Shown here: piece after piece, positions 12,563 to 45,087 of the stretch
How the letters are laid out: each line of letters begins with the position of its first letter
How positions within the stretch are numbered: the first letter of the stretch is position 1
Assembly: GCF_963921235.1 (NCBI RefSeq)
Contig: NC_086108.1
Location: 52,640,001-52,704,000 of the forward strand
Source of the DNA: Mobula hypostoma
Taxonomy: Eukaryota
DNA: 64,000 nt
Direction of reading: 5' to 3'
Translations under genes and position numbers: made by a program
The notes under the pieces: generated by a model
Told to the model about the DNA's origin: nothing
The model's database searches: none
Seen by the model: only the letters and a program-made list of their open reading frames with translations

Positions 12563-15058
12563 GTTTCATCTCCATCTGCAGGTAGGCCTCAGCTAAGTCC
12601 ACTTTGCTAAAGTGTTTCCTTCTAGAAAGGTCTGTAAAGCTATCCTCTATCTTAAGCAGAGGGTACTGATCTACTTTAAGTACTAGGTTGATAGTGATCT
12701 TACAATCACCACAAATACTGGCAAACCCATCCTTCTTGGATACTCGGGCCATGGGTGTTGCCCAGAGACTCCATCAACCTTGGAAGGAATTCCTTCAGCC
12801 TCATTGCGATCTAGCTCACTGGCTACTTTATGACAGACGGTATAAGGAACTGGATGAGCCGGTTGTGAAACTTGGGGGTGGCATTTTCATTTAACACTAT
12901 TTTACCCTTATGTGGTTGAGTTTTCCAATGTCATCCTTAAACACTGCCATGGCATCATCCAGTACCTTTCTTAATTTGCTTTCAGTTGACTCCAATGCAG
13001 GAGATGTGACATGCATATGATGGACAGATCTCCAATCAAGTTGTAGTTGTCTCAGACAAATATAACCCCACAATACTGGCCCTCCTGTTTTTACCATTTA
13101 CAAGCTCAATGTGGCTTGTCGGTTGTTGCATTTCACTATTACACATGCCATACCCACAGGAGTTATCTTTTCTCCAGCATAAGTTCTTAGTTGGATATCT
13201 GCAGGTTTCAGTTCAGTATCTTTGAAATGCCTATCAAACTCATTTGAGAAATGACTAAAACAGCCGAGCCAGTGCCCAATTCCATTTTAATTAATTTGCT
13301 GTTCATTTCTAGTTAAGGCCATAATGCTTGACAATTGTTAGATTTCACATTATAAATCTCAAGGCTACTCAGTCCTTTGTCATTCTCATCATTATCAAAT
13401 TTTTCATCACAGTATGCACATTAGTGCTCTTTTTGAAACTGTAACTTGACTTTTTATCTTTTTCTCTTCCCTGAGCAGTCCATTTAATCTTGTCTGCTCA
13501 ATATGCTCTTTAATATGTCCTACTTTGTTGTGTTTTCTGCAAATTTCACCTTTAAACTTGCATTGGTGTGGCGTATGTGAGCTCCTGCTACAACTATAAA
13601 CACAATTTATTTGACAGGCCAGTTCCTGTTTAGATGCTGCAATTTTATTCACACTCATTTTCATTCCAGACTGCAACACAATTCTGTCTGCTGTTTCCAT
13701 TGATACAGATATTTCAACTGCTCTTTTAAACGTGAGTTGTGCTTCAGCTAGGAGCTGTTTTTGAATGCTTTCTTATAAGATTCCACAACCAAATTGATCT
13801 CTCAGTGCATCAATCAATAAGCCTATCACTGAACTGACAATTTCAGGCAATCTCTTTAATTTAGACACAAACGCTGAAATGGACTCCCCTTCCTTTTAAT
13901 TCTGCTTATAAAACCTAAGGCATTCTGCAATCAACAATAACATCAGTTCTAAATGTTCCTGCATTACTTTCATGATATCAGCAAAGATCATTTATGCCTG
14001 GTTTGTTGGAGCGGTCAAACTTCTGAGCAAGCTGTACGGCCATTTCTGCTTTTTTAATTTATAATTATTATCACCCAGTACTCACTGCTTATGAATCCGT
14101 GAATCTGTCCATTATTTTTCTTTTTTTTAAAAAAAAAACACAAACGTCTCCTTTTCTGAAGACGTACACGCTGCGCTTTTTTTAAAAAAACTGGACAGGT
14201 AGGTAGTTGTCTTGGATTTGTTTAAAACTTCGTTGCCAGTGTTATGTTTTGTAACTCCAAAACATAAAATGAATTGAAAGGAAAGCAAGGGAGCCAGGAA
14301 CATGAGTCTAACTTCATTCTTACTTTAAGCGAGGCACACACTTACGACGTGGTGGTGTGATGACATATGCCATTTACGTTCCTTTACATATAACCCATAA
14401 TGAATTATTTCATCAGCAAAGAATGTTTAGATCAAACAATATATTTACAATATCACTCAAATGTTACTGAAATATTAAATACACACCAAAAACCTCTCTA
14501 TCTCTGGTGCCAGCTCTAGAATACATTGGGGGAACTATTTTTCCATTGAATTCTCTCTGACACAACAAAGAGATACTGGTAATAGAGGCAGTGGAACACA
14601 GAGTATCAGTTTATCTTCCTTTGGTGGAAGAAAGGAAGAACTAAGTGTGCAATATTTATATTTTTTCCCACACCCACTTTCCTCTCAGCATTCTTCGGCC
14701 AGATTGCCAATTTATTGTGTGACCCACGTCAACAAGGAACTTCACTGAGACTGAGAAATCAGCCAGTACAGGTCAAACAGTGTATCCTCCCATGCAACAA
14801 GGCAATGAGCACAAATGATTCAACCGTCCTTCCATTTCTCTACTGACAAAATAAGAAGTCTGAAACACACAGGTGTCTCATTATTGCTGGTTCCCTTGGA
14901 ACCTGGGCACTATCAGTCAGCCCAATTACATCAGCCAGTATCCCATTGGACATTTTATCCACAACATCCAAAACTGTACATGCATTCTTATTCAGTATTC
15001 CTCTTTAAATAAAACTGCATTTACATTTTACAATTAAATAAAGTAAGATTTACTTTAC

Positions 15059-15176
15059 CTGCAGTGCATTGTTCTGATCTTCCCCAGACATAAACTGGAC
15101 TTTCACGGTAATATTTCTAGCAGATCCTTGACGGTTTGCAAAATTAAGACTCTGCGGATACACGTACAGCAAATTC
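15059..15176 (-). CDS. DOCK7: DOCK7-like internal exon (118 nt), start of DHR-1/C2 domain
   Basis: [39 protein letters not shown], tag/gtaaag flanks; [24 protein letters not shown] fits DOCK7 better than DOCK6 or DOCK8 as recalled. Confidence 0.95.
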
Positions 15177-16954
15177 CTATGGAATTAAACAAAGTTAATG
15201 AGATGCAAGATCTTGTGTGAAAATTGAATATAGAGGGGTTTATGTATCAATAGCTAACTATGACGTTGGTAGGAACGGAGCAAGAAAGTGTACAGAAATT
15301 CCAATGCTATTTCAGATACAAGATCCAGTTGAATGTACAGGTAAAAGAAACCACAAGGGATAGTTTTATGCACTATAAGAGTCAGTTAAATCTAGCCCTG
15401 GGCTAAAATCACTGCTTTTCAGAAGAGAGCAACCTTGTTGTTTCAACATCCCACTCGGGTTTTAATGCAAGAAAACATTTAGAAAACTGGTTTCGCTCTT
15501 TTCAAGTCAACTCTTTCATGCTCAAAAACAAACAAAAAAAAACAAGTCAGGCAGCATCTATGGAGGGGAATAAACAGTCAACGTTTCGGGCCGAGACCCC
15601 TCATCAAGACTGGAAAGGAAGAAGACAGAAGTTAGAACAGAAGGTGGGGAAAGAGAAGGGGGTACAAACTAGCAGGTGATAGGTGAGAACAAGAAATGAC
15701 AGCCTTACTAGCATTGTCCGTATAATATCACTAATTTTTAAAAATCACTATCACACTTATGGAATAATTCTCATTTTTAGTCATTATAAAGTAAACAAAT
15801 GTATTTATACTGGGTGAAGCTACTTACAATAAGACAAATAATTTATGACATTTTCTTACCTGCTATCGTATATAACTACAGTATACCCAATTTACTAACC
15901 TCCCCTTCACCTGATCTCATCTACCAGCTTGTACATCTTCTCCTCTCCCCACCTTCTTCTGGCCTTTACCCCCTTCCAGTCTTGATGAGGCACTTGGCCT
16001 AAACCGTCCACTGTTAATGTATGCTATCTCACTTGCTGAGTTCTACCAGTATTTTGTGTGTGTTGTTCAAGATTCTCCTGTGTTTATGATGTGCAGGAAT
16101 TCAAAATGGTTGCTTTTGCATTGACATTTTAAACAGCCTTGTATTTTACACGTGAAAAGTAGTTAATCCTTAATCTGCTCAATAATTATTAGACCTGTGT
16201 TCCTGTGGCACACCACCTCCCATCAACTCACTCACCCACAGAGATGGCCACTACTCTTGTGCAGTTTTCCCCACAAAGAAAGCCAACGTATCACAAGCTT
16301 AACAAAAATAAAAAAGTATTATATTTTTGAAAGTATACTTTTGGTATTTTCATTTGTTCCAATCTACAGCAGTCTGTGAGACGTTTAAACGTCTGTGAAA
16401 ATTCACTGACACAGCTGATTGGTTACCTAGCTCAATGGCTCATTACTGGGAGTCAGAGGTCCCTTAGAACTGTACAAGATAGCATGCACCATTAGAAATA
16501 GGAATGTTGACACCATAGAGATCATTAAATCGTGGCACATTTCTCCGAGGTCTATACTACCGACAATAAAATCTGGCCATCAGCTCATCTCAGGCAATGC
16601 GAGAGCAACAATAGTGTAAATGGCCTCAGTGTCCCTTGCTCAGAAGGTGTGTGGATGTTTTGAGAATAGAATCTGAATTGCCAGAGATGAGAAGCCTTAG
16701 GGTGAAGACTCGTATTTGAAGAGATAGTAGGGCCTTGAATATCAATAAAACCGCTTTCAAATGGAATGCTGCATTTCGATGACAGGCAGTTGGTGAGGTC
16801 GCTCTTGTACCAAAGCCACAAGCATCAGGCACTGAAAATTTAAAAAGTATTTAAGACAGATAAATATGGAGCAAATCAATTCCTGTGAATATTTAAGAAA
16901 ACTGTAATTAAGGCTTTAAACTTAAAGTATCCTGAAATAAAGTCTAAAGTTGGG

Positions 16955-20216: not shown

Positions 20217-21296
20217 CAGGTTGACCACCGATTTTCCGGAAGCTGATGGTTCAGCACCTCTTCTAATTTAGGTGAAATTATGAGGCCAAGTATCACTCAC
20301 TTTTCAGGAAACACCAGTTAGATGAGGTGAATGCTGGCAATTCTGTACAAACATTCATTAAAGAGTTCAACATGAAGGACGTTCTTTGTTTCATTGCTTG
20401 AAGGTGGGAGAAGGTAGAACCCTCAACACTAAAGAATGATCAGGATAAGTTGTGGCCTGGCTTGATGTCTGATAATGTGCCTGAAGAAAACCTTCACGAT
20501 GACTTTACAGGATTTCATGTACCAAAGGAGAAAGAAATTGTTCATGATTTGCTTGCGTATGCAAAAAGTGCTACAGAACTTGCTTTCAAAGATATAGCAA
20601 GTAGTCTTAACGAAGAAAATCTAGGTGAGTAGATGATAGTCCACGATGAAACACCTATTGTGTATCACCTTATGGACTCGGGAATTATAGACAGTGATTT
20701 GAATTCTGATAAAAACACTGCAAGTGTTAAAGATAGCAGCAGTGATGATGAAATGGATGAAACTGGAAGAGTTATTATTGACAAGTTAATTCAGTTGCTG
20801 GGTGATTTAATCAAAGGGTTAGAGAAACATACATTCATGATGGAACAAGACCTAATGAATTTATATTTGATGCAGGAAAAATTACACAGGGGAGATGAAA
20901 ACACAAGAAACAACTTCACCTGGATATAAACATAGAAACATAGAAAATAGGTGCAGGAGTAGGCCATTCGGCCCTTCGAGCCTGCACCACCGTTTATTAT
21001 GATCATGGCTGATCATCCAACTCAGAACCCCGCCCCAGCCTTCCCTCCATACCCCCTGATCCCTGTAGCTACAAGGGCCATATCTAACTCCCTCTTAAAT
21101 ACAAATGTTTAAAAAGATAACCGAGAAGCAATATTCTTTATAAGCACAGTAATTAATAAATTTACATTTATTTTTTGTTTAATTATTAATCCTTTTAAAG
21201 CTTCTACTGTCCATTTTCCCCTTTATTATTGCATGACCTCTTTTAATCCGGCAAGGCTCAGGAACCGAGGGTACCTGAAAACCGGTGGTCAACCTG
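20217..21296 (+). mobile_element. Internally deleted pogo/Tigger-like transposon with nested CR1 tail (~20927-21100)
   Basis: TIRs CAGGTTGACCACCG ... CGGTGGTCAACCTG flanked by TA; remnants of an acidic transposase C-terminus (20450-20929). Confidence 0.8.
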
Positions 21297-21537: not shown

Positions 21538-21596
21538 TGAACCTGTTTAATCATCAGCTAAAAGATTGAAATGGTCAATAAATGGAGGTATATAAA
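21538..21596 (+). promoter_or_regulatory. Putative ANGPTL3 proximal promoter: TATA box plus DR4-like/HNF1-like element
   Basis: TATATAAA at 21589-21596, about 40 nt upstream of ATG 21637; TGAACC-TGTT-TAATCA at 21538-21553 overlapping GTTTAATCATCAGC. Confidence 0.5.
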
Positions 21597-21636
21597 GGAC
21601 TTTGCTAGAAAGGGCACTCTCAAGTATTGCGAAAAA

Positions 21637-22119
21637 ATGAAAATGCTCTTTCTGGCATTCCTCATTTTACTTCTGACCCATTATTCTGTTCAAATACCAG
21701 TAAACAATTCTGGCTCAGAACCCGCTTCTAGATTTGCAATGCTGGATGACGTGAGGATTTTAGCCAACGGACTGCTTCAGCTGGGACATGGTCTAAGAGA
21801 TTTTGTCCAGAAAACTAAAGATCAAGTGAATGAAATATTTGAAAAAATTAGTATTTTCGACAGATCTTTCACTGAACTCTCAAAGGAAACCAACGGGATC
21901 AAACATAATGAACAGGAACTGAAAAAACATACTGCAATTCTACAAGCCAAAAATGATGAGCTAAAAACTATGTCACTTGACATCAAAGAAAAATTAAACA
22001 GCATTGTGGAAAATCAGACTTTTCTAGAAACAAAAGTAGAAGGTCTGGAAGACAAACTATACAAACTGAATGAAATCAAATCAGAAATATTGGAGATAAA
22101 GAAGATCCCATCTCTAAAA
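21637..22119 (+). CDS. ANGPTL3: Angiopoietin-like 3 exon 1 (signal peptide, SE1 motif, coiled coil), 161 codons
   Basis: MKMLFLAFLILLLTHYSVQ signal-like start, then EPASRFAMLDDVRILANGLLQLGHGLRDFVQKTKDQVNEIFEKISIFDRSF (ANGPTL3 SE1 region); ends AAA|GTAAGT; nested antisense in the DOCK7 intron. Confidence 0.95.
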
Positions 22120-23580
22120 GTAAGTGGATTTTTATACAAAAATTGTGAAATCTGCAATTTACTACCCAATTATCTCAGTTAAATGGTCTCCATCTTGAGC
22201 TAAGAAACGAGTCTCCATGTTCCCATTTAGTGAACCCCTGCTAGAAAGTTCATTTGTGGATATTAGATGTGAAAAGAGCAAGTTGGTTGCAAACCCACTC
22301 GGTCAAATAACTTTACCTAAATTCACATTTGAACAATAGTCACTTGTGTGAATTACAGGAAGTAAAAAAAATTGCAATAAATTGGAAAAAGATCAATGTA
22401 AGGTGTAAACCTTCCACTGTATGCATCCAGGTGTAAAGTATTTCCAAAAAGTTCCAGTACAATTTTGTACTTCCTTTCATCATTAGCAAGTATGCTGAAC
22501 ACTATTAAAATGTGTTATTTCATTCACATATAACATAAGAATAATAGCCTTCTAAAAATAGAACTATTAAAAATGAATGATTCTATAATATTTTGCCTCT
22601 TCCTTTTAAGGAAGTACCCCACTTCCATTTGACAAAGCGTAACTTTTCCTAACAGGTATGTGGACGTTTCAAAAATCACATGCACTGATCTGCATCAGAT
22701 CCTTACATGGTGCAGTTTACTGCATTCTTCAGAGCAGCGCACAAACATTGTTTGGGGAATAACAATGTTTGAATACTGATTAACATGTAACATTACCCTG
22801 CACTATACTTACTCTACTGTAATAAACAATGGTCTCAAAACAGAAGGTGATCTCTGTGCAGTAATAAGATGAGATAGTTTATAGGCTCTCTATACTGCTT
22901 TATGTTGTAGCACTGCAGAATATTATGCAAATGCAATACATACCATGCTACTTCTTGAAGGACCTTGTGTAATTATTTATGCAAAATTAAATCAACGAAC
23001 AGCTCATCATAGAAACTGTTTTGTGCTGGAAAAGGCACATTAAAAGCATTGAACTGCAATAGACAAAAAACATTTTAATTGCCATATTTAAAAAATGATG
23101 TTAAGGATAACACTGCATATTGTCTGGATCAGGTCAGGGTACTGGCAGTGTGGGCGTGGATGCAATGTGTCAGATGGTAATTGGATCCTGGAGGAGAATG
23201 CCCAGTGTTATTTGAGAAAACAAGGGGTTACAAATGAGAGAGGTTGTCATCCAAAGGAAACATAAGTAGATATAAATTCTAAAGTGGTCCTACCTTTAGG
23301 TTCTCTTTCACTTATGGGTTTAATTGTGCTGAATTTAGCACTTCCTTTCAATCAAGCACCGTTTAAGCAAAGGATCCTGAAGGATTTGAGAACCTTCAGA
23401 AAATTTTACTTACATGAACATATTAGCATTGCTGTATGTTAAAAACAAAGACCTAGAAATTATAATTTGAAACTGAATTTAGTTATTAATTAATGACGTT
23501 AAAATAGTCATTGGGAAGTTTAGTACAGAAATTTATTGTTATTTACTCTGAGTGTTATTTTATTAATTTTACTCCACTAG

Positions 23581-23694
23581 GTTCTTATTGAAGAACAAAC
23601 CAAAAATATCAAAAGCCTGATCAATACTTTACAGAAGCAACACAGTAACCTGGACAAGCAGAGCCATCAAACACAGAAACTGGAAGAAAAGTAA
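23581..23694 (+). CDS. ANGPTL3: ANGPTL3 exon 2 (coiled coil), reading into an in-frame TAA
   Basis: Acceptor ...actccactag, then VLIEEQTKNIKSLINTLQKQHSNLDKQSHQTQKLEEK followed by TAA at 23692-23694; resembles the recalled human exon 2 (TFVEKQDNSIKDLLQTVEDQYKQLNQQHSQIKEIENQ). Confidence 0.85.
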   Translation, partial: VLIEEQTKNIKSLINTLQKQHSNLDKQSHQTQKLEEK

Positions 23695-23721
23695 TTCTCA
23701 GGGGCATTTTTCTTTCACGGA

Positions 23722-23727
23722 AATAAA
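23722..23727 (+). terminator. Candidate polyadenylation signal just after the ANGPTL3 exon 2 stop
   Basis: AATAAA 27 nt after TAA, followed by a TG-containing stretch (ttgctgtgtc); AATAAA is common in this AT-rich DNA. Confidence 0.35.
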
Positions 23728-26458
23728 ATTCTAGAATTGCTGTGTCACATTTAGGAGATTATTGAACTGGCCAGAACTGTCAAAATATTGATAATAAGAA
23801 CAATTTCACGCCAATAGCCAGTTTCAACCCCACACTAGAGTTTACATAGTATCTTGATTGATAATTGGCTTTGCCAAAACGTACAGACCAGCAAGACCTG
23901 TGTCCAAGCCCCAGATTGTACGTTGCCTGATGATAACAGGAAATTACAACTATCCTCAGTGATTGTGTACATCAAATGAAACATGATCGAGCTTAGAAAT
24001 TCTGCTGCTCTCATTCAGCCAGTCAATAATCATGAGCAAGATGCACAAGGAAGCATGTCCAATCTATTTTAAAAAGTGCAAGGTCAAAAGCAAAACTTGA
24101 TGGCCAGTTAAGTTAGAAAAACTACTAGCTATAAAGAATGAGCTTAAAAAGAACTTTTTCTAAAATATAAACATTTACGCAGAGCATTACTTTAGGCTTA
24201 GGACTGTGGTGTACCGTCTTGGAAGATGCACCCACATTAATTTTATAGCAGCATGTTGATGAATTTGGCAGTAGAGCCAGAACTCTGATAAAGATAAAGG
24301 AAGGGTTAAAAGACCCAAAGGGTCATATTGGAGAAGCAAGCAACATTTCTCACAAAATTCTGTCCTATTAGTTTAAGAGCCTCAATCAAGGATTAGCTCA
24401 CTCTGTAAAAAAGTGAGCAGATAATCTGCAGGAGAGGGCAAATAAATACATTATGCATTTTTGATAGAAAATGGTAGCTTTGAGGTAAAATCAAAGGAAA
24501 AAGGCATTTCATTTTAAGAGAGGGAGAGAGGGAGAGGGAGAAACCAAAAGGAGGAGAATCTGCAATCAACAGAACATAGCAGAAGAGATCCATGTCACTG
24601 TCCCTCAGAAGATAAGCCTCAGTCACTTCAAGGAACAGACTACAACTATCACTGTTCTGATGTTTTGTTTCTCTGTACAGGCCACAACTTGTGTAGTAAA
24701 TCTGTTATGCAAATAAAAAAACACCTGTCTCCATTGTCATTTGCTATACTCATAAACCAGTCTCTTTTGTTAAATTAATTATGGATTGGCAAACCTTGAC
24801 ATGCCTTTGCCTGTTGATAGATCGAAAGAGCTAAATGCATTGTAAATAAGATCTATTTTGATTCAGATATTTAATCTTCTTTTAATAAATGCAAATCTTC
24901 TGATTTATTGCAATGCATTTAATAATGAGAGAAGATGCAACAAATCTCCAATTATGATGCAATGTCAAATGCTGCCTATTAATGCTCCTTTGGATGTTTT
25001 GGAAGTGCTATATAAATATACGTGCTCCAGTGTAAGTGCAATACAAACACAACGGCAGTAGTGTGGTTGTACAGCAATTAATATTGCTGTCTTTTGGCTC
25101 CAATGACCTGGGGCTTAATCTGCAGGTCCAGGCATCTAGTTCCTTTGATGGCTTTCCTTAAAAACAAACTCACACTACTGGTCAGATTTAAACATGCCCA
25201 CCTTAATAGGGTAAACTTCCCTTTTTGTTAATTATTACATTATGCAATCTATGTTATGCATATCGTATTATTATAAAACTGCTTATTCAATGATCTACAA
25301 ATATGAATGCAGCTTTAATGGCATATGAAAGTCATGAATATTAGCATTCAAAAGCATCACAGCCAATCTTTTCTCCACCACACCATTTTTCTGCCTTTTC
25401 CCCAAACCCTCAATACCTTCAATGTCCTTAAGACAACAATGTGCATTGTTAAAAGGCAGCTACTGGCTCCAGAGTTCTCTGAGCTAGAAAATTGCAGACA
25501 TTCAGTATTCTCAGATAGAAAAAAACCCTTTATTTCAATCCTTAATGACCGCTTTGTTTTGAGACTTTAAGCCCGAATTCTGGACTCTTTTCCAAGCGGG
25601 AATATCTTGCATGTAGTTGTATACGTTTTGTACATTTCAAAGACATATTTCATTGTTTTAAATTTTAGATAACAGAGTTCTGGTCTATTTATTATCTCCT
25701 TTCATGACTGAGCCTTCATTACAAGAATAAGTCTGGTAAATATTTGTTACACTCACTCTTACATCAAGTGCATCCTCTTGGTTATATCACACTGGAATAT
25801 TTCACATGTGATATAACCAAGGTCCCATATAATTGTACTTCATGTTTTAGCAGTTGTTACTTAACAAAAGTGCCTTCACTAAAAGTCTGTTCAAGTATAA
25901 AATTAAAACCTAACACAAGCTCAATTTGTCCATGGACCTGAGCCCATGGACTTATATTTTTTTTCAAAGCCAACTTTTCTCAGTCTCAAATGCAACATTC
26001 AACAGTGAAGTCCTATTGGCTCAGGACAGGATTTCTCCCTGACTGAAGTTGTATAGATGAAATAATCACAATTATCTCAAATGTTAAAATCTTGCAATAA
26101 ATTACCATAAACCAACAAAAGTATCCAGAGCACAACTACATAGATAAAGGCTTCCTCAATCATGTCATTGAGATACAAAGCTCAACCTGCTCTGCTGAGC
26201 AATTAATACTGGAAGCCCATTATGAGAAATATTCATGCCATTGGCAACAGTCCATACATCACACAAGCTGAAGGATTTGAAAAGTATGATGACCTTATCC
26301 CATTATATAATTTGCCTTTGCCCATCCTTACTCAACTTTCTAAACTTCTCTCCTGAGATGCTGGTGTGCTTAGCTACATAACAATATTCTGATTTATCTA
26401 TGAATGAAAGCATAATATAATCAAGGCCTATAATTTGGCTTGACACGAAAATACAACA

Positions 26459-27794
26459 CAGACATCCCACCTCTCCCGGAAGATCCGGGAATCTCCCGGA
26501 TATCGATAGTGGCTCCCTGACGCCCGGAAATTATATACAATATCCCGGAAATAGATTTCCTTGAGAGGGAGAGCGAGCATCCTGATTGGTCTCTCTTCGT
26601 GCTAAGATTGGTCCCCAACCACCGGGCTGCGAGGAAACGATATGATTTGGCGATATGAGTCAGCTGCACCTTTCCTCATTCCCTGTCACGCACTGTTGAG
26701 CTTGAACGCACGCGAGCTCATTACCCGCGCGTCGTCCATGTCAGCGCGGGAAGAAGATCAACTCCTCGAGCTTGCAAATGACTGTGGGCTGAAAAGTATG
26801 TTTGACATAACATCTCTGCTGGCATTCTGGATTAAAGTCAAGGCTGAATATCCTGAGATAGCCACGAAAGCACTGAAAACGTTGCTTCCATTTCCAACAT
26901 CATATCGCTGCGAAGCGGAGTTTTCTGCAATGAATGCAACGAAAACTAAATTGCGGAATAGACTAGACATAAGGAACCCCTTTCAAGTATCGCTGTTTCC
27001 CGTCACCCCTCGATAGGACCGAGTTGTTGCAGGGAAACAAGCCCAGGGCTCCCACTGATTCAGCGATATTGATGTGTTGCAATGATTTTATATGTTCATA
27101 CAAGGAAAATACGCACTGTGCGTTTAATATCCAAACATTACTTAAAATGTTATGATGCTATTGACTTATCACCTATATTCCAGTTGTGATTAACACCCCC
27201 CGCTCCCCCCTCCCCCCGGGTCGGCCAGTCCACAAGAATATTGTCAATATTAAACCGGTCTGCGGTGCAAAAACCGTTGGCGACCCCTGCTAAGTAGACC
27301 TATCAGTTTTCTCTATGGGCGGGCTTTACAATCGACCTCAAAAATAATGACAGTGTTGCTTGCTGCACTGTTTGCAACAGTGACTTTTCTATTGCCCATG
27401 GTGGGTTAAGATGTAAAAGACATGTTGAGGTGAGTTTAACAGGTGTCATTTGTTCATTAGCATAGTTAATGTTATTTAAACTAGCTGGCTAGCTGCTAAG
27501 GAGCTACGCTATTGATGTCCTACGTCATGAGGCCAAACACCCTGTAGACTTGCTTAAAGTTGTAATAGAATAAACATGATAATATAAGTGCATATTTTAA
27601 TGTCACATTTGCTGCATATACCCAACTTGGTTTGCAGATTAGACAAAATCACTAAACAAAGTTTTACATACACCCTTGGAGGTCGACGGGGGGGGGGGCG
27701 GAGGGGATATGGGGTTGTGGGGGGTGTGGGTGCTACCTCCCTGAAATGGTGGTGATACCTCCCTGATATGAGTTTTTGCAGGGTGGGATGTCTG
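26459..27794. mobile_element. Second copy of the CAGACATCCCACC-TIR transposon (opposite orientation), TSD ACAACA
   Basis: TIRs at 26459 and 27782-27794; ACAACA at 26453-26458 and 27795-27800; shares internal sequence with 7193-7805 in reverse. Confidence 0.85.
26607..27289 (+). mobile_element. Nested hAT (Charlie-like) fragment with C-terminal dimerisation domain
   Basis: ORF 26642..27016 FWIKVKAEYPEIATKALKTLLPFPTSYRCEAEFSAM...KTKLRNRL; right end GTTGGCGACCCCTG; left end GGTCCCCAAC is damaged. Confidence 0.85.
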
Positions 27795-28021
27795 ACAACA
27801 CAAGTGAGAATATTTTACATTACTAGAGACACCGTTTTCAAGATGAAGATATTAGTGTTAATCTATCTTTTAATCATATTTTTCAACTCTTGAAGAAACA
27901 CATACATGGACAACGAATGGCACCAAAAAAAATTACCATATTTGCTTCAAAACTATCACTTGATTAATGAATTCACAATTTTCCCTTTATGTTACTAGTT
28001 TCTGCTAAACTTCAATTTATA

Positions 28022-29615
28022 CAGGTATTCCCCGCTTTTCGAACGTTTGCTTTACGAAACCTCACTGTTACGAAAGACCTACATTAATACCCTATTTTCG
28101 CTTTCAGAAGGTGTTTTCACTGTTACGAAAAAAAAATTCAGCGCGCGAAAAAATCAGTGCGCGATAAAAGGCAGCGCGCGATAAAAGGCAGCGCACCCTG
28201 AGCAGCCGCTCTCCCCCGGATTCTCGCCGGTATTGCTTAAACACGAGCCTGTGAGCAGCCGTTTGCAAGATGAGTTCTATGGTATCGGAAAAGCCTGAAA
28301 GAGCTCGTAAGGGTGTTACACTTACGGTAAAACTAGACATAATTAAGCGTTTTGATTGTGGTGAACGAAGTAAGGACAGAGTGAGTTTGGCTTGTGGAAG
28401 CTGACGAAGATGATGTTGAAGAGGTTTTGGCATCCCATGACCAAGAACTGACAGATGAAGAGCTGATGCAATTGGAAGAAAAAAGGATAACAATCGAAAC
28501 CGAATGAGTAAGGATAAAGTACGACTTTAATTTTGAAAGGGTACATTGGTTTAGGAGATATTTGCAGGATGGTTTGCATCCTTATTAAAGAACTGTGTGA
28601 TAGAAAAATACGCCAGGCTCAGCAGTCAAGCAAGCCTTCCACATCAGCCACAGCAGATGAAGAACCTCGACCTTCAACATCGAGGCGGACAGTCATAGGA
28701 GAAGATGAGCTGCCTGCTCTAATGGAAATAGGCGACGAGATGACACCCCAGTGTCCCACCACCCCAACCCCCAGGCCACGGACAGATACCAATTCGCAAA
28801 GAATGGAAAGGTAGCCAGGAGGCATACAGCACATCTTTAAGAAAAAAGCCAAAATAAACATGCTAATTAATTAGGTGCCGCTGACACGTAATTGTCGGCC
28901 CAGATCAGAGACGACGCAATCGGAAATCGGCACTGATCTGGGCCAACAATTACGGGCGGTACCTAATTAATTACCATGTTTGTTTCCGTTTTTTTCTTAA
29001 AGATGTGCTGTGTACCTCCTGGCTACCGCTGGACCCCTGCGTTCTTCACGGCAATGTATCGCTCAGTGACCTGCAGGGTGGGGGCCGCTGCACCACCCAA
29101 ACTCCGACGACTCAGTCTAACACACCATCATCAGTGTGCTCAGCGCTGAACCAATTCCGGTACGTGATACTGCACTGTACATACATTATTTCTACTTTAT
29201 ATCAGCTGTGTATTTTTACGGGTTATTTGGTATGATTTGGCAGCTTCACAGCTTAAAGGTTACTGGAGAGCGCTTGTGTGTGTTTTTGCCGACAGCGCTT
29301 GCATGAGATTTTCCATTGACGGTGCTTGCGTGAGATTTTCGCTATGGAGAGCAGTTCAGTAATGATTGTGGAAAAGTATTTCTACTTTATATAGGCTGTG
29401 TATTTATCATGTCATTCCTGCTTTTACTATATGTTACTGTTATTTTAGGTTTTATGTGTTATTTGGCATGATTTGGTAGGTTATTTTTTGGGTCTGCGAA
29501 CGCTCACAAAATTTTCCCATATAAATAAATGGTAATTGCTTCTTCGCTTTACGACATTTCAGCTTACGAACCGTTTCATAGGAATGCTCTACCTTCGGAT
29601 GGCGGGGGAAACCTG
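28022..29615 (+). mobile_element. Non-autonomous Tigger/pogo-like element with internal foldback
   Basis: TIRs CAGGTATTCCCCGC ... GCGGGGGAAACCTG flanked by TA; N-terminal KRARKGVTLTVKLDIIKRF-like relic. Confidence 0.8.
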
Positions 29616-29739
29616 TATTTGCAATCAGCAAATGCTTCAGTTTGTATCCTCGGGTAATGAAGTTTTACATTACAGCAAACTATTTGTCTATGCCAAATAT
29701 GACAGCAAGAAACAAAATAGAATAAGATGGATTGACATG

Positions 29740-31250
29740 TGCAGGGCGATAGAAGTTATCTACATTGACTTTAGCAAGGCTTTTGAGAAGGTCTCACATG
29801 GTAGGCTGGTTCAGCAGATGGACTTGGGATCTGTTCACAGCTAACCAAATGGGTGAAATACTGCCTTGGTGGAAAATTGAAGGCCAGTGTGTGCCATGCT
29901 GTGCCATAGGGATCAGTACTATTGTTTGTCGAGTATATATTATTTGGTAGAAAACATAAGTGGCATGATGAGTAAGTTTGCAGATAACACTTAACTTTTT
30001 GGTGTGGGGCAATGAGGAGGTCATCAAAGGTTACTAAGGGACTCTATCAAGTGGAAAAGTAGGCAAAGGACTGGCAGATGGAATTCAGTTCAGGCAAGAG
30101 TAAAGTGATGCTTTTCAGGAAATTAAACCTGGGCAAAAAATACCACAATGGTAAACAGGGCCCTGGAGAAAGCTGTAGAACAGAGAGACCAAGAGGTACA
30201 AGTATAGAGTTCTCAGAAAGTAATGACACAGAGAGACAACGTGGTAGTAAAGATCTATGGCATACTTGCCTACATCAGAAAGAGCAATGAGTACAAAAGA
30301 TGGGACGTCATGTTACAGCTGTACAAGATGTTGGTGAAACCATACCTGGAGTATTATGTGCAGTTCTAGTTGCCATGCTATAGGAAGGATGGGATTAAGC
30401 TCGAGAGAATGAAGAAAGTATTCAAGAGGATGTTGGTAGCACAGGAGGGCTTGAGTTGTAACGAGACTGGATAGGACGGGACTTACCCTGGAGCAAAGGA
30501 GGCTGTGGGGTGGCCGAACAGAGGTTTATAAAGTCATGAGGGGCAGAGATTTTATGCAAAATTAGCTGCAGGATCATAGAACATAAAACACCACAACATA
30601 GTATGGGCTCTTCTGTCCATAATGTGCTGATCTTTATCAACTTATTCCATAATTAATCTAACTCTTCACTCCTACACATCCCTCTATTTTTCTTTCATCC
30701 ATGTGTCTCTCGAAGAGTATCTGCGTCTTTCACCACCTCTGGCAGGGAGTTCCAAGCACTCACCACTTTCGGCGTATAAAGCCTACTGCTGACATCTCCC
30801 CAAAACTTTCCTTGACTCACCTTAAACAGCTGCCCTCTGGTATTAGCCACTACCACCTTGGGAAAAGTCACCTCTCATCCTCCCTCAAAGAGAATGGTCA
30901 CAGCTCACTCAACCTTTCCACATAAGACACACTCTCTAATCCAGACAGCAACCTGGTAAATCTCCACTGCACCCAGTCTAAAACTTCCACATCCTTCCTA
31001 TAATGAGGCGAGCAGAGCTAAACACAATACTCCAAGTGTGATCTAACAAGAGTTTCACAGAGTTGTAACATTACATTACGGCTCTTGAATTCAATCACTC
31101 GACTACTGAAAGCTAGCACACCACACTTCTTTTAAACCATCCTGTCAACTTGTGCGGCAACTTTGAGGGATCTATGGATGTGGACCCCACGATCTCTCCG
31201 TTCTTCCACACCGCGAAGAATCCTGCCACTAACCTTGTACTCTGCCTTTA
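29740..31250. mobile_element. Decayed CR1-type LINE fragments (plus, then minus)
   Basis: IYIDFSKAFEKVSHGRL and VKPYLEYYVQF remnants; reverse-orientation 3' fragment from ~30575. Confidence 0.7.
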
Positions 31251-32460
31251 CTCTGGCAAACTAATTACATTCTGCATCAGAAACATGCTTCATATTTTGC
31301 TCTTAATTTTAGGGCAAATTTGTATAGACATCTAGTATAGATTTAATGGATCAGCAGATTTTAATCAACCCTTAGCAAGCTTATAAAAATGGCTTTGGTT
31401 CACGGGAAGATAAGAAGATTATGTTACCATGTCTTTAAAAAAATTTCAGTAAATTATATCCTTGTCAACTTGAGTCTGTTTGTTATGAGACAGTGTGGAG
31501 GTGGTGGTTGTAGAGATGGCAGGGAAGTTAGATCCACACACACAATTGTTCCTGAACATTCCCATGGGAACAAGTGTGTATCTGCACAAATGAAGATGAT
31601 GAGAATCATTCTTGGTGACTGGGCCTGCAAAATCTGACCAAACATGCACCCAAAGAATCAGAATTTGGCGTCCACAGACTTCAGCCAAAAATAAAAGTTG
31701 AAAAGTTTGAAATGGAACCACCCTTAAACATAATAAATGATAACATTCATGATGGACATTCAACAAAATATAAATAAAGTACAAAAATCAAAAATGTCTG
31801 ATGGTTTAAAATCAATTCTATCCAGTCCTTTCCACAAATCCAAAATAAGCAGTATTTAATTTTTATGTTATTTGGGAGAAGATACAAATCGGCTTAGAAG
31901 GGCGTAAAAATAAACAAAATTACAATTAGTTTTTTTTTAAAAGGTTGTGGACAAATCACAGATATTTTCCACATACTTTTAAATTCACAGAACATTACAG
32001 CACAGTACAGGCCTCTCAGCCCATGATGTATGCTGAGCTTTTAACTCATTCTAAGATTATCCTGTTATCCATGTGCCTATCAAAAAATTTCTTGTATGTC
32101 CCTAATGTATCTGCTTCAACCACCAGCCCTGTGCTCTATACACCCACCACTCTCAATTTAAAAAACTTACTTTTCACATACTCCCTCTACTTTCTTCCAA
32201 TCACCTTTAAAATTATGGTCCCTCATATTAGCCACTTCCACCCTTGGAAAAAGTCTCTGGCTGTCCACTCAAGCTATGCCCCTTATTATCGTGTACACCT
32301 CTATCAAGTCACTACTGATCCAAACAGAAAACCACTAGATCACTCAACCTGTCCTCATAAAACATGCGCTCTAATTCAGGCAGCATCCTGATAAGTCTCC
32401 TCTGCAACCTTTCTAAAGCTTCCACATCCTTCCCATAAAGAGACAACCAGAAGTGAACAC

Positions 32461-33724
32461 TGTATTGGAGGGGTCGTGATGGGGTGGGTGCTTTAGGAAC
32501 TGATATTTCCCTCCCTACAATTTGACCTCCACCTGAGTCCCGACCCTCAGGGTTATCCCTCAGCCAGTGAGCAGACCCAGGGAATGCTGGTGCAGGCTCC
32601 GAAATGAGCACAGTTCCAACCTTTCAGTAGGCCACAGTGACTGTGAGCGGGACTAGTATCCGGGCGCTCCAGTGACCACTGCCGATGTTGCCGCTAAGCT
32701 GGGGGCTCCCTGGACTTTGAACGGGACCCACTGGATTTGCGGCCACAGCGCCTACCCGTGGCTCCCCGCGAGCTGGTACGGTTGTTGCTTTCCAGCATAT
32801 GTGGTGCCCTTCATCCACCCCCCTGAACGATCTGGGGGAGCACCCGGCATACAGCAGTCACCAGGACAAGAGGGCCATCACGGAGGCGGAGAGGTTCTGG
32901 ATGATAGCCTTTCCCAGATATGGCTCGGCCCGATTGTCCCGTGAGGTGATCCAGATAACCAGTGTACTCGAGAGGCTGGCCAACGAAACGGCAGTGGCAC
33001 TGCAACACACCGAAGATGCCCTCACCCGAACGGCGGCAGAGCTGGTGGCCGTCAGGATGGTCGCCCTGCAGAATCGACTGGCCCTGGATTACCTACTCGC
33101 GGCTGATGGTGGTACCCGTGCAGTGATTGGTAAGGAGTGCTGCACATTTATCCCTGACGAGTCGAGTAACATCACCCACTCACATTCGGGACTTGGTGGC
33201 TAAAATTCAAAAATCGAGGGGCCAGCTCCTCCAGCACAACACCTCATGGAGAAACTGGTGGCCGTTGGGTCCCGGAGGGGGAGGGGCTGGTGGGCAACTG
33301 TCATCCACTGGTCGATTGGACTCATTCTCGTTATCATCGCTGCGTGTATATAATGTTGTGCTTGCCAAATTATTCAGAGCACATCTGCCTTTCTTTAGTT
33401 CTATATAGTCACATATAGCTTTAACCTTAGAAATAGTTAAGTGTAAGACTTCCATTAAGATATATTACTTTCCTTCTCACTGTGTTACATGTAATGCTTG
33501 GCATGTAATGCATGCGATTTTCCCACGTTCGTTACTAATCGTCCGCATGTGTTTTATTGCCCATCCGACTTTCCCCACGATTGCTGTAAATTGTGCACGT
33601 GTGCGTGTTGCTTCTGTTGTCATTTCCCCACATTTGTCTTCTGTAAATAAAATCCTTTACTACCAAGACTGTGTGTCCAGAGTCCTTGCCTTTGAGATCT
33701 ACTGAATCTGTTTCCTCACTTACA
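32461..33724 (+). mobile_element. Endogenous retrovirus env fragment (SU end plus TM) and probable 3' LTR
   Basis: GTHWICGHSAYPWLPASWYGCC, QDKR/AITE cleavage-like site, LQNRLALDYLLAADGG immunosuppressive domain, ECCTFIPD, hydrophobic VIHWSIGLILVIIAACI; downstream AATAAA 33646-33651 and terminal TACA. Confidence 0.85.
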
Positions 33725-33789
33725 GCAAACACAATATTGCAAGTGTGGTCTAAAAAGAATTTTATATTGAACTCAATTCCCTCCCCCAA

Positions 33790-34510
33790 CCTTGTAGAGT
33801 AATACTGGGAATCTTTGAATATATACCAACCTTTGCGTCATCTGTACGCTTACTAACCACCCTTCTATTTCCTCCTTCAACTCATAAAATCACGAAGAGC
33901 AGAGGTCTCAGAACAGCTCCCTGTGGAACACTACTGGTTATCAACCTCCAGGAAGAATTTGATCTATCAACAACCATCCTTTCTCTGCCTTCTCTGGGCA
34001 AGCTAATTCTGAATCTACACAGCCAGGTTTTCCTGGATCCCATGCTTCCTGACTTTCTGAATGAGCTTACTTTGGGGAACCTTATCAAACACCTTACTAA
34101 AATCCACATACACCAATCCACTGCTCTACCTTCATCAATTTGCTTTGTCACATCCTCAAAGAATTCAATCAAGGCCAGACAAAATCCTAAAAAACCCACA
34201 AATCTGAAACTCTGCCCACTGCATTAATTCCTCAGCCACACAATCATCTGCCAAATCATCCTATTCTCACCCTCATTAGCGTGTGTCACAGATAGCAATG
34301 CACAGATAACTGTCTCTGAAGTCCTGTTTTTCAGCTTCCTACCTAGCTGCCTATATTCTCTCTTCAGGATCTCATCCCTTTTCCTACCTGTCGTTGGTAC
34401 CACTACGTGCCATGACTTCTAGCTGCTCACCCTCCCCACTTAGAATGCTATGGACCCAATCAGAGACATCCCTGACCCTGGCACCTGGGAGGCAACATAC
34501 CATCTAGTGT
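33790..34510 (-). mobile_element. CR1-type LINE RT and ORF1 fragments
   Basis: LIEFFEDVTKQIDEGRAVD and VPQGAVLRPLLF (33882..34199); esterase-like piece related to 6060-6280. Confidence 0.75.
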
Positions 34511-35579
34511 CTCTTTCATATCCACTTCCTCTCCAACCTTACTTGAAAGTGGACAAGTTCTTACAGGGAACCCAATCAGGAGTAGGTACAGCAGCTCAGT
34601 ATAGTGAGTCAGGCAAGGGTACAGTTCCTCAGGGCAGTGGGGCAGGTGGGAGGTACAATAGAACAGAACAGCAATTCAGGCTGTTGGGTACAGTGCTGAG
34701 TTAGATGGGGTACAGTAGCACAATATCGTGACTCAGCCAGAAGCCTTGATGCACAGAGCTGAGAGTCAGGTCGGAGTATCGTTACACAGAACTGTTCATC
34801 AGGCAGAGATACTGCAACACAGTGCAGCAAGTCAGACAGGGTACTGTCCAAGGTGAGATTTGGAGCTTCCACTAAATCGACATTCTATTTGTCTGTTGCT
34901 GCATACTGGGTCACAGCAGGTCTCTCGAGTGTCTAACTTCTCATAACCATATGACATCATGTAACACTTTGGTACCTGTTTTACATTCAGAACTCTGTGT
35001 CTATTAAAGGGGCAAACCAGCAGCATCTAGCACCGTTTCTCTAACACTCTGCCACAGAATGTTAGTGGGTATCAGTTAACTCTGCAGAAATCATTAAATT
35101 TTAAAGTAGCTTATGCTTCTGTACTCAATATGCTTATAACAAAAGAAAATGAACTATTGCAAGCTTTCAAAGTTCTGCTCCAGTCTTCAACTTCAGGTCA
35201 TGTATTTCTTCTTACAGGTTACATTAACAACAAGAAGCCAATCAATTCAAGCAAAATTTATCTGATGTCAATAACACACTAATCCTAGGACCTCCAATGA
35301 TAAAAAAAAACAAATATTACAATCCTATTTCACAACCCTCCTTCAAAATTACTGATCCTGCATGTTCTTTGCTTAGTTTTAGCAACAATATGGGGGTTAG
35401 ATCAACGAAGGTGATCTAAGGTGGATTTACAGTGTATTCACATAAATGCAAGAAGTATTCTATCCAATCCTTCCTACAAATTCAAAATAAATAGTACTTA
35501 ATCTTGATGTTATTTAGTACGTTACAAATCAGCTTAGAAAGGGGCAAAATAAACAAAATTACAGTTAGCGATTTTTTAA

Positions 35580-36555
35580 AGACCATCATACTTAGGAGCA
35601 GATCAATCTGTTAAGGTCCATTCAGTCTGCTCCTCTGGCCATTCTGATTTATTTCCCCTCTCAACCCCATGTTCCGGCTTCTCCCCATAACCTTTCACTT
35701 CCTTACTAATCAAGAACCTATCAACCTCTGCTTTAAACATACTCAATGACTTGGTCTCCACAGCTACTTGTGGCAATGAATTCAACGGATTCATTAAGCT
35801 CTCAGAAAAGAAATTCCTCTACTTCTCTTGTTCTGAGGGAAGTCCTTCTATTCTGAGACTGTGCCCACTGATCCTAGACCCTCTCACTAAAGGAAACATC
35901 CTCTCCACATCCACTCTATGAATAGTCATCAAGGTTCAGTGAGATCTTCCCTCGTTCTTCTAAACTCCAGCAAGTAATACACGGGTGTTTCTCTGGTTGG
36001 CAATCAGTGGTGAGTGGGTGTGCCACAGGGGTCGGTGCTGGGCCCGCAACAGTTCATGATATACTTTAATGATCTGGAAGAGGGGACTGAGTGTAGAGTA
36101 TCTCAGTTTGCTGATGACAAAGTGTGTAGAAGAGCAAATTGTGCAGGGCATACAGAGAGTTTGCAGAGAGATATAGATAGATTAAGTGAGTGGGCAAGGG
36201 CCTGGCAGAATGGAGTACAATGACTACCAAGTCCCTTTGCACTTCTGATTTCTGAATTCACTCCCTGTTTATCAAATAGTTGAACCCTTTATTCCTTCAA
36301 CTAAGTTGCATGACCATACACTTTTTTTACACTGTATTCCATCTGCCACTTCTTTGCCCATTCTCCAAATTTGTCCAAGTCTCTCTACAGACTCTCTGCT
36401 TCCTCACATTACCTCCCGCTCCACCTATCTTTGTATCATCCAAAAACTTGGCCACAAAGACATCACTTCTGTCATCCAGATCATTAAAATATAGCATGAA
36501 AAGTAGCAGACCCAACAGCATCCCCTGAGCAACACCACTATTCACTGGCACCTGT
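35580..36555. mobile_element. CR1-type LINE fragments in both orientations
   Basis: GVPQGSVLGPQQF...FADD (36014..36223 +) and GVAQGMLLGLLLF...FLDDTK (36327..36551 -). Confidence 0.75.
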
Positions 36556-37692
36556 CCCTCTGGTCAGTCACAGCCTGACTTTGAGCAATCAAAGAAATTT
36601 CAGACATTATGTTCCAGTTCCAGCAAGTATATATTCACTTGATCCTCAACTTCTTCGCCAATGTTGATTAAATTAGCAGCATAGAGCAGATGCTCACGAT
36701 ATACGAACACTGTGAGTAAATCCGTACAAATACTTTGAGTAAATCCAGCAGATTTTGTCTGCTCCTTCTTGTCCCATCTCCACAATCCTGCTTCAAAATA
36801 TAGATGCCACTATGGAGAACGCATCACAAACTGGGTTCTATTACTTTTACCCTTAGCCTGGACCTCAAGTTGCTGATAAGAAGGCAATGATTTTGCAGAA
36901 AAAATTTGACAGAGCTGCCAATGTTTACTGACTTTACTTGTGCAAATGAGAGCAACTCCTGCATTCCTATAATTGCATTTATGATTACTGAATTCCTTAC
37001 ATTGCAGTCAGCTTTTCAACGTTTTTCCAACTCAGCTCATTGCTGGAGAGTAGCCTGAATTTGCTGTGTTTTCCCATCGCCTGCATTGTCCCACTTAATT
37101 CAAACTATTGTTATTTGTTTGCATTTAAATCTTTCTGTGTATTTAAATGAATTTAATGGCTTTTGAGTTTTCTATGTTATTTTCTCAAGTTAGTCTTCTT
37201 AAACAGTTCGGTTGCTTTTTAATAATTTCTAAATGCCACAAATACTGTTTTGACAGATTTAACACTTCCCATTAAATGGGAAGCTGGAACAAGAGAATGC
37301 GAGAAGGTATTTAAAATCATGAACCAGTTTTAACCGTCAGAGCTTCCTTCTAACTTCTTCCACATGACAGAAGGCACTGCCAGTGCACAGGGCTTCACAA
37401 ATTCTCTCAGAGCTGGCTCAGACTCACATCCTTGGATTGGAGCACTGCACAAAGCAGAAAGCACTACAGAATTAATGATTGCCTAGAGTTGGGATTGTAT
37501 CATTGCAGATCCTGACTGTTTTGAATAAAATGGGGACTGAATCACTCTGCTGTCCCACTCCCCCCAAGTGTTCCATCCCAGTTTCCTGTGATCATCAGTT
37601 CTGACCTTCTTACACCCAAGTAAAAAACTACAATAAATATATTTCTCATGTTTAACTTCAGTCTTTCAAAGCATCATTAATCCTTTGTGTAG

Positions 37693-37930
37693 GTGAATTC
37701 TGGTTATGGTTCGAAAAGGTACTCTATACAACATTATCAGGGAGATCACATTAAAATGGAAGGCCAGAAAAGTGACAAGCATTTCATAAAGTATACCTTT
37801 CACCTGCGTGAAAAGGGGAAAGATTATACTGCCTAACATCCTCTTGGGAAATGACTGAAAAGGCAGGAATTCCTTCTCTACCAAAGATAGGAGATATCAC
37901 ATCATACCAAATGTGCTGAAAATTATTAAG
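37693..37930 (+). pseudogene. ANGPTL3: Decayed ANGPTL3 fibrinogen-domain exon (human exon 6 equivalent)
   Basis: tag|GT GAA TTC TGG TTA gives GEFWLWFEK; frameshift to YSIQHYQGDHIKMEGQKSDKHFIKYTFHLREKGKDYTA* (TAA 37834); frameshift to SFSTKDR; frameshift to KCAENY* (TAA 37927). Confidence 0.85.
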
Positions 37931-43142: not shown

Positions 43143-43440
43143 TACCTTTCCTTTTTACCTTTGCATTATTTTGCTGGTTATGGTTAATTTTCTGCGATAC
43201 AGATAGGATAACAGATTCCTGCCTACTGTAGGCCATGATCACAAGACAGAATTCTCTCACAGGAACCAGTCTGTGTTCTCAATTGCTCCAAATCCAACTT
43301 GTTAAAAACAGCACGAGTAAATGTTTCATGAACAAGAACTGAATACAATGTGCACCCCCTTCCCTCAATGTTCTGATCCATTTTCCCAAAAGAATCACTT
43401 GCACATTATAGAAGTTATGAAGAATAACTATTGTTCTTAC

Positions 43441-43603
43441 CTGTATGTGGTGTACGGAACATACACATCCCTTGAAGGAAACTCCAGGATATCCTTTGTT
43501 GGTCTAACTCGAGTATCTGGGTAGGGTTTGACCTGTAGTAACTCTGGTGTGAGACAATAATGGGGATTTTCTGGAGCTGGAGAAATGTCTATTTTCAGTT
43601 GGG
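43441..43603 (-). CDS. DOCK7: DOCK7-like internal exon (163 nt), 5' flank of the ANGPTL3-containing intron
   Basis: [55 protein letters not shown], cag/gtaaga flanks. Confidence 0.95.
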
Positions 43604-45087
43604 CTGTATACAGAAAATAAAAATGAAATCTTAAAAGGTGCTCGTTCAGGAAAAGAAATCTTCAAAAAATTTAGTACAAATGAATTTCAAAAATGTTAAT
43701 TTGTTTTTAAATCTGTACAACAGACAAGATAAAAATAATAATTAATACTTGATACTGTCAATCTGCACTGAAATAAGCAAATTCTGGATTTATGAAACAA
43801 TAAAACAGCATTTGAAAAAGGTGATGCATTTCTTCCAAGCCAAATAGACAGCAGTGGAGATGATCTGAGTGTGATTGGTTATAGACAGTGAACTGAAGAC
43901 AACGGCTTGATGAGACTGTAGCCCAGTAATACAATGCTTATTCAGTGAACCGTGGGAACCAAGCAGAAACAAGGAGGATAGATTTGGGAAACAATCAGTA
44001 GGAAAGGAGGTAAGGTGATTCTTCAAAGAAAATATATTAGTAACATTTGAAAAAAAGTTAATGTTGAAGATTACAGGAACATTTACTCCTTCAACAGCTA
44101 ACAGATTCTGATTGTGCAGTTCCAGTATTTTCTCGATTTGTGAGTAATTCTCAGGACTGAAGGGCATAATCATGATCTGTGACACACATAAAATGCTGAT
44201 GGAATTTAGCAGGTTAGGCAGCATCTATGGAGGGAAATGAACAGTTGATTTTCAGGCTAAGACCTTTCACCAGAACTGGCTTTCGCCTCCAGATTTTCAG
44301 CATGTGCAGGTCTCTTTTGCGTCACCATAATCATCAATTACTGGGAATCACTGAACTCTTACTGTTCAGTTAGAGGACAAAACCCTCCATCACATTCCTG
44401 TTCTTTCCCTAATGTCCTGCAAATGATCCATTCTGTTCAGTTCCTTACTGAAGGCACCATTTGATTGTTTCCACCACCGCCATCAGATCACGACCACTTT
44501 CTAAGCTCAGCATGTCTCCCTTATACATTGTGTGCAAGATTTTAAATCTACATCTCTCTATCTCAAGCCATCTGATGACAGCAACTTCCCACTATTTATC
44601 TGATCCAAAGGAGTCAATGGCATGTGCACTTCCAGCAAACCTCCTTTCAATCATCTTTGCTCCAAGAAGAATTCCATCTTCTCTACTGGAAACTTAACTT
44701 GAATGCAAGAGCCATTCATATCTTTGCTGCACGTCTCAGAATTAGGTCCAGCCTGTGATCCTAACTTTTGGCAAGTGTCATCAGCTTGTTTAATGGTAGA
44801 CCTGATTTATTCATTAAATAGCTTTATGACTGATGCCAGGAAAGCTTCCACAGCTTAGTTTTATTTTAATTTATTTGTCCATGGGATGTGGATATTTCTG
44901 GCAGAGTAGACAGGAATTTAAGTGTAAACAATTAAATAAAATGCTATTATTAATAATAGCATTTATAGCCATTTCTAATTCCCTTCAGCAGGTGGTGGTG
45001 GTGTGAGACTTGGTATGGATAGAGACTAAAACTTGAAACTTTCCAGGTCTGTGGGTACCATCCCATACTGAACAACATTTTCAATCA

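Follow-up and report, generated by a model that had tools for sequence, protein, structure and literature searches.

We analysed a stretch of 64,000 nucleotides from the devil ray Mobula hypostoma (NCBI RefSeq assembly GCF_963921235.1, contig NC_086108.1, positions 52,640,001 to 52,704,000 of the forward strand; hereafter the window), which holds an ANGPTL3 gene within an intron of DOCK7. In this gene, the first two exons are open and run into a stop codon, while those remains of the fibrinogen exons that can be recognised downstream are decayed. ANGPTL3 is a blood-lipid drug target, and what its fibrinogen domain and its cleavage do is still debated; in one account, the importance of the cleavage 'is not entirely clear' (PMC12867014).

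Searched against longer proteins, exon 1 matched 511 at E ≤ 0.001. Among the best 120 of these, the top six are the ANGPTL3 proteins of Heptranchias, Pristiophorus, Cetorhinus, Mustelus, Callorhinchus and Scyliorhinus (64–75% identity; 67–75% for the sharks, with E down to 9e-62), nearly all named matches are angiopoietin-related protein 3, and none is ANGPTL8. By tblastn, exons 1 and 2 each show 75% identity to shark ANGPTL3 (E 1e-62 and 6e-11, respectively). An earlier reading of the window from its letters alone (the sequence-only reading) had called for a check on whether the host gene is DOCK6 or DOCK7, and it proves to be DOCK7. A minus-strand frame at 5157-5321 matches the Pfam domain DOCK-C2 (E 1.2e-17); among the best 120 of 237 homologues at E ≤ 0.001, every one that carries a paralogue number is a DOCK7 (82–98% identity); and a DOCK7 protein (P0276), used as a tblastn query, gives 12 minus-strand exon matches spread between 60888 and 2848, on both sides of ANGPTL3. 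The DOCK7 intron at 15182-43439 (28 kb) holds every part of ANGPTL3, antisense to its host, and this placement, which is usual for the gene, together with the similarity, identifies the gene as the ANGPTL3 orthologue. It is the single orthologue, cut short in place, and not a duplicate.

Exons 1 and 2 are joined by canonical sites, with a GTAAGT donor at 22120 and an AG acceptor at 23579-23580 (see the table), and together give 198 codons with no stops and no frameshifts. In an alignment with five shark proteins, all five run on from ...LEEK into [L/I]RVT... at the very residue where the window frame meets TAA, which places the end of the frame at the ancestral exon 2/3 junction. The sequence-only reading had described 161 and 37 open codons, which hold, and an exon 2 'one G short' of its donor. 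The position of the stop at the old boundary stands; the missing G is one possible, and fair, reading of AAGTAATT. The AATAAA that it had placed 27 nucleotides beyond the stop is also there, and a TG-rich stretch, TGCTGTGTC, lies about 12 bases past it.

Table. Features of ANGPTL3 and its host intron, in window coordinates
Feature	Positions	Strand	Remarks
DOCK7 exon, low-coordinate flank of host intron	15056..15181	-	P0276 residues 520-561, E 2e-16
TATAAA box, putative core promoter	21591..21596	+	41 bases before ATG 21637; presumed promoter function
ANGPTL3 exon 1	21637..22119	+	161 codons from ATG 21637: signal-like N-terminus, lipase-interaction (SE1) motif, first long helix
Intron 1	22120..23580	+	GT...AG
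ANGPTL3 exon 2 and stop	23581..23694	+	37 codons (23581-23691), TAA 23692-23694 at ancestral exon 2 donor position
AATAAA, candidate polyadenylation signal	23722..23727	+	27 bases between TAA and AATAAA; putative poly(A) site
Fibrinogen exon 5, probable decayed remnant	31339..31408	+	RFNGSADFNQ / QAYKNGFGSRE, two frames, 1 frameshift
HMM match	31339-31371	+	HMM positions 87-97
HMM match	31376-31408	+	HMM positions 99-109
Fibrinogen exon 6, decayed remnant	37692..37930	+	acceptor AG kept at 37690-37691; 47/78 identity to shark protein
HMM match	37692-37727	+	HMM positions 110-121
HMM match	37747-37830	+	HMM positions 131-158, E 5e-5
HMM match	37897-37926	+	HMM positions 190-199
DOCK7 exon, high-coordinate flank of host intron	43440..43607	-	P0276 residues 466-521, E 6e-26

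Past exon 2, tblastn with shark proteins yields a three-frame patchwork at 37692-37891 (sum E ~1e-6 to 3e-7), corresponding to exon 6. When this remnant is aligned to the shark segment with frameshifts allowed, five frameshifts and one stop are needed, or three frameshifts and two stops under a harsher penalty. This is the broken fibrinogen exon that the sequence-only reading had seen about 14 kb downstream. That reading could identify no other fibrinogen exon with confidence, which holds for exons 3, 4 and 7 and has to be amended for exon 5: a second, two-frame patchwork (sum E 0.09–1.2 with shark queries) is its probable remnant. We also built a profile hidden Markov model (HMM) on 112 ANGPTL3 sequences from outside the batoids, using their C-terminal halves, and ran it on the six frames of the window. 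The pieces that it recovered are collinear and all on the plus strand; the top minus-strand match has E 2.8, and nothing better than E 0.6 was found elsewhere in the six frames. Neither tblastn with shark proteins nor the HMM recognised any remnant of exons 3, 4 and 7 in the window. The three remnant pieces match no Pfam family at E ≤ 1 in a scan for Fibrinogen_C, a domain for which the shark protein P0002 scores 3.9e-66.

Two weak candidates for the last fibrinogen exon were considered and set aside. One, at 63728-63784 on the plus strand (E 1–4 with four queries), lies beyond eight DOCK7 exon matches, and its sequence, ..KFYKALIRP, is similar to a LINE reverse-transcriptase motif. The other, at 24284-24346 on the plus strand (HMM E 0.61), sits 600 bases past exon 2; it resembles the basic stretch of exon 7 but is out of order and probably due to chance. 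The surroundings of the remnants hold other sequences. In what was the ANGPTL3 intron separating exons 5 and 6, an open frame at 32721-33200 on the plus strand gives a match (E 1.2e-5) to TLV_coat, a family of retroviral envelope proteins, and looks like an endogenous retrovirus fragment. Tandem arrays at 39205-39771 (30-base unit, ~18 copies) and 40057-41022 (83/163/329-base units) occupy 1.8 kb where exon 7 would be expected.

What remains is the front half of ANGPTL3. The predicted protein begins with a hydrophobic, signal-like N-terminus, MKMLFLAFLILLLTHYSVQ, followed by the lipase motif RFAMLDDVRILANGLLQLGHGL. The lipase-interaction motif (SE1 plus heparin-binding) has been mapped to ANGPTL3 residues 36-65 (PMC12867014), and over these 30 residues the window product is identical at 27 to each of 11 mammalian sequences (11/11), in keeping with the earlier remark that its SE1 motif is close to the human one. 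Among batoids (rays and skates), identity over the aligned motif is 26–30 of 30; skates replace the first R of the motif start RFAML, and Rhinoraja also replaces the F. An AlphaFold2 model (mean pLDDT 85.7, with low confidence at residues 15-29) places helices at 32-154 and 156-197, matching the two coiled coils with a break between them that have been described for ANGPTL3 (PMC12867014). No match to Fibrinogen_C (PF00147) was obtained for the window product (P0242), whose Pfam matches all fall below the curated cut-off, and a phmmer comparison of the 198-residue protein with PDB sequences returned only generic coiled coils and DNA polymerase theta (E 0.35–0.8). The last ray residue aligns to mammalian residue 202, and the R-x-P-R convertase site begins 17–19 residues later in the mammals aligned (5/5). 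A linker motif of the form R-x-[PKR]-R is absent from all four shark, chimaera, gar and coelacanth sequences checked (P0002, P0006, P0008, P0045). Cleavage at the R-x-P-R site may be specific to tetrapods or to mammals.

The short form recurs in other batoids. In a search of proteins of similar length, the top three clusters are batoid RefSeq models (98, 86 and 82% identity), and the next match is at ≤57%. The named models come from Hemitrygon akajei (198 amino acids), Mobula hypostoma (198, identical to the window product), Amblyraja radiata (217), Rhinoraja longicauda (196), Leucoraja erinacea (220) and Narcine bancroftii (204), and cover the orders Myliobatiformes, Rajiformes and Torpediniformes; a Logan protein of 189 amino acids in the same clusters is exon 1 run into intron 1. 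All six named models reach ...QKL(E/D)EK at the exon 2 boundary, where five stop exactly and that of Narcine continues for eight residues. The Amblyraja and Leucoraja models owe their extra length to an extension at the N-terminus. The models carry no Pfam Fibrinogen_C, and no Pfam domain at all is precomputed for the three batoid cluster representatives, nor does a full-length batoid ANGPTL3 appear among the best 120 of the 511 longer-protein matches. On this comparison of models, the truncation looks batoid-wide and not specific to the Mobula genome. Among the sharks, RefSeq models show variation of their own at these junctions: ANGPTL3 of Pristiophorus (in the set P0003-P0005) has 23 extra residues right past ...LEEK, suggesting a downstream alternative exon 2 donor, and the X2 isoforms of Cetorhinus and Mustelus skip the exon 5 segment.

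To assess constraint on the front half, we compared its evolution in batoids and sharks. Over residues 31-198, identity is 82–87% between batoid orders and 84–89% between two shark superorders. Batoids form one clade with support of 100 in maximum-likelihood trees, in which the tree length of the batoid crown (0.30 substitutions per site) equals that of the shark-only branches (~0.30, summed by hand); FastTree gives 0.33 for both. Of 178 columns, 50 vary among batoids and 46 among sharks, and the batoid models differ in length within the shared frame by a single in-frame gap of three residues. Batoid changes are concentrated in columns that also vary across 106 bony-vertebrate sequences (Mann-Whitney p 0.004; for sharks, 4e-6). 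Columns changed in batoids, whether within the clade or on its stem, comprise 12 of the 64 near-invariant columns versus 47 of the 114 others, and columns varying within sharks comprise 5 of 64 versus 41 of 114. The fibrinogen remnants, by comparison, show ~55% identity to the shark protein (52/95, a best-frame patchwork summed from tblastn), against 79% for the front half. Between intact shark orthologues the equivalent fibrinogen segments are 86% identical and the front halves 86–92%; when intact, these segments change at a rate close to that of the front half. These data show the front half to be under protein-level constraint and not in uniform decay, and they bear out the sequence-only reading, which had taken the intact 5' half and destroyed 3' half as a sign of selection: six batoid models and the avoidance of conserved columns now point the same way.

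Upstream of the gene, an in-frame ATG 66 bases before the ANGPTL3 start opens the translation MVNKWRYIKDFARKGTLKYCEK (window 21571-21651). Set against the extension at the N-terminus of the skate models (Amblyraja and Leucoraja), this translation aligns without gaps at 11 of 27 identical residues (E 4e-5, a single comparison). Because the TATA box falls within this stretch, the extension in the skate models is probably untranslated and an artefact of annotation; the resemblance hints that the promoter and the length of the 5' region have been kept between skates and the devil ray. HNF1-like sites are present at 21178-21190 and 21546-21558, with two and three mismatches, respectively, to the HNF1 consensus. 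The window has 110 such matches on both strands at ≤3 mismatches and 16 at ≤2, and hence the two upstream sites may be due to chance. Elsewhere, the DOCK7 introns contain transposon debris, including a Tc1/mariner-type transposase helix-turn-helix (E 2e-15) and two reverse-transcriptase fragments, along with frames that weakly match GDSL-lipase and OSK domains and might derive from a LINE ORF1 esterase; the positions of this debris are 3803-4273 (+), 9557-9910 (-), 36330-36563 (-) and 5853-6394 (-).

We think it probable that the gene represents an old, batoid-wide truncation that has been kept by selection, and that it encodes an ANGPTL3 without a fibrinogen domain, which most likely is secreted and inhibits lipases. 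The truncation would have arisen in the ancestor of living rays and skates, whose orders diverged more than ~200 million years ago. Loss of the exon 2 donor would have let the frame run into TAA, with the message most likely ending at the AATAAA 27 bases past the stop, and the fibrinogen exons, once out of use, would have decayed or gone. The 198-residue product would then be secreted and would inhibit lipases as a trimer, the gene itself encoding the form that in mammals is produced by cleavage. We infer a single ancient origin and a transcript end after exon 2. The proposed function follows from the correspondence of the product to the lipase-inhibiting N-terminal fragment. In published work (PMC12867014, PMC8304944), the N-terminal domain was reported as 'necessary and sufficient' for inhibition of endothelial lipase (EL) and lipoprotein lipase (LPL); by itself it assembles into homotrimers and homohexamers, and in one study disruption of the trimer abolished EL inhibition. 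Angiogenic functions are ascribed to the fibrinogen-like domain (PMC12867014, PMC8304944, PMC4172915). By analogy, we infer that the ray protein is secreted, forms trimers and inhibits lipases.

Several observations weigh against this account. At the 3' end of the short gene, a residual GT at 23691-23692 (AA followed by GTAATT), cryptic as it is, could in principle serve as a shifted donor, and AATAAA occurs 111 times on the two strands of the AT-rich window, making the copy at 23722 weak evidence for a 3' end by itself. The term 'batoid-wide' rests on three of four orders, with sawfish and guitarfish in neither protein list; the RefSeq models (XP_) are predictions; and decay of the fibrinogen exons was read in the Mobula window, the other batoids being known from protein models. 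The case for constraint is made from protein sequences alone, and parts of it point the other way. More near-invariant columns have changed in batoids than vary in sharks (12 versus 5, the batoid count including the stem), pointing to some loosening of constraint or to a change in function. The stem leading to the batoids forms a long branch (0.147–0.158 substitutions per site), and the nine stem changes fixed in all batoids show no avoidance of conserved columns (p 0.29). With coelacanth or gar as the outgroup, batoid-unique changes exceed shark-unique changes in 18 of 18 comparisons (11–21 versus 0–7); with chimaera as the outgroup, one of nine comparisons is significant, and shark-unique changes are equal or more numerous in five of the nine. 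The long stem and the excess of unique changes indicate an acceleration, by relaxation or adaptation, around the time of the truncation, with an ordinary rate afterwards.

The length of the stem, the indifference of its nine fixed changes to column conservation and the skates' substitutions at the start of the motif (the first R of RFAML, and in Rhinoraja the F as well) would also fit a truncated protein selected for a role other than lipase inhibition, perhaps after a switch of partners that followed the loss of the fibrinogen domain, for example as an ANGPTL8-like subunit that modulates another ANGPTL. We regard such a role as unlikely. The core of the lipase-interaction motif is unchanged in batoids, mutations in the first four SE1 residues left EL inhibition unaffected (PMC12867014), and nothing in the window data indicates another partner.

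It is very improbable that the gene is a unitary pseudogene, its first two exons open by chance and its RefSeq models annotating a dead gene. The 3' half is indeed dead, and cartilaginous fishes evolve slowly, so that open frames can linger. Yet the frame has stayed open, and to a common end, in six species from three orders, substitutions avoid conserved columns (p 0.004), and the amount of change equals that in intact shark genes. Disabling lesions number at least five across the 93 aligned codons of the remnants and none across the 198 of the front half; at five per 93 codons, ~10.6 would be expected there (Poisson P ~2e-5), an estimate that assumes equal time of exposure to mutation for the two parts.

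We give almost no credence to an assembly or search artefact, by which intact fibrinogen exons were misassembled, lie outside the intron or were missed, or by which the missing G is a sequencing error: exons 3, 4 and 7 are wholly unfound and a 1.8-kb block of tandem repeats (39205-41022) stands where exon 7 might have been, but exons 5 and 6 survive as decayed remnants in the right order, the host intron is bounded by DOCK7 exons, the HMM finds no better home for the C-terminal half in any frame, and the models of five other species, from separate assemblies, end at the same place.

If ANGPTL3 was indeed truncated in the batoid ancestor and kept as a lipase inhibitor, an entire vertebrate clade would be living without the fibrinogen domain of this protein. 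A whole clade with the N-terminal module only would amount to a natural experiment, arguing that it is this module which carries the conserved function of the gene, and would supply naturally minimal inhibitor sequences. It would also provide a convergent parallel to the origin of ANGPTL8.

We found no published description of a truncated batoid ANGPTL3 in the titles, abstract openings and parts of PMC5237311 that were consulted. The short proteins are already in RefSeq, under the ordinary ANGPTL3 name and without comment. In a 2017 survey, angptl3 of the little skate is entered as 'ni' (not identified) (PMC5237311, Additional file 1), an entry that these models correct. Domain loss that leaves an ANGPTL N-terminal module is a known kind of event; the batoid instance, its age and its breadth appear undescribed.

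Compared with the full-length ANGPTL3 of sharks and chimaera (P0002-P0007), the ray gene is orthologous, has the same exon 1/2 structure and shares 61–79% identity in the front half; unlike it, shark genes still have exons 3-7 and, with them, the Fibrinogen_C domain noted above for P0002. With neither a fibrinogen domain nor a linker with a proprotein-convertase site, the ray gene departs from the canonical ANGPTL architecture.

ANGPTL8 (lipasin/betatrophin) also has 198 residues and no fibrinogen domain, lies in a DOCK6 intron and has been suggested to derive by duplication from an ANGPTL3-like gene (PMC4172915); the 2017 survey reports it from mammals only (PMC5237311). The ray protein resembles it in length, in consisting of an ANGPTL3-type module and in being encoded within a DOCK intron, a likeness of architecture only, which we draw from the published description. 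The sequence-only reading had proposed an independent origin of an ANGPTL8-like architecture at the DOCK7 locus. The DOCK7 host and the fibrinogen-less form stand; what arose there is a truncated orthologue and not, as in ANGPTL8, a paralogue in DOCK6. ANGPTL8, moreover, acts in heterotrimers with ANGPTL3 or ANGPTL4, and there is no full-length batoid ANGPTL3 partner among the matches listed. We lean, by a narrow measure, towards the view that the batoid ancestor turned its sole ANGPTL3 into a cleavage-free, fibrinogen-less lipase regulator, a second and independent ANGPTL8-type architecture at the sister DOCK locus.

In mammals, the N-terminal fragment of ANGPTL3 is released by furin or PACE4 at residues 221-225 (PMC8304944, PMC12867014). 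The ray protein is like this fragment in its signal-like N-terminus, its lipase motif (27/30), its long coiled coil and its lack of a fibrinogen domain. It differs in being encoded directly, with no proteolysis, no linker and no control point for cleavage or O-glycosylation. By this analogy, the function of the ray protein would be closer to that of the furin-released ANGPTL3 fragment than to that of ANGPTL8.

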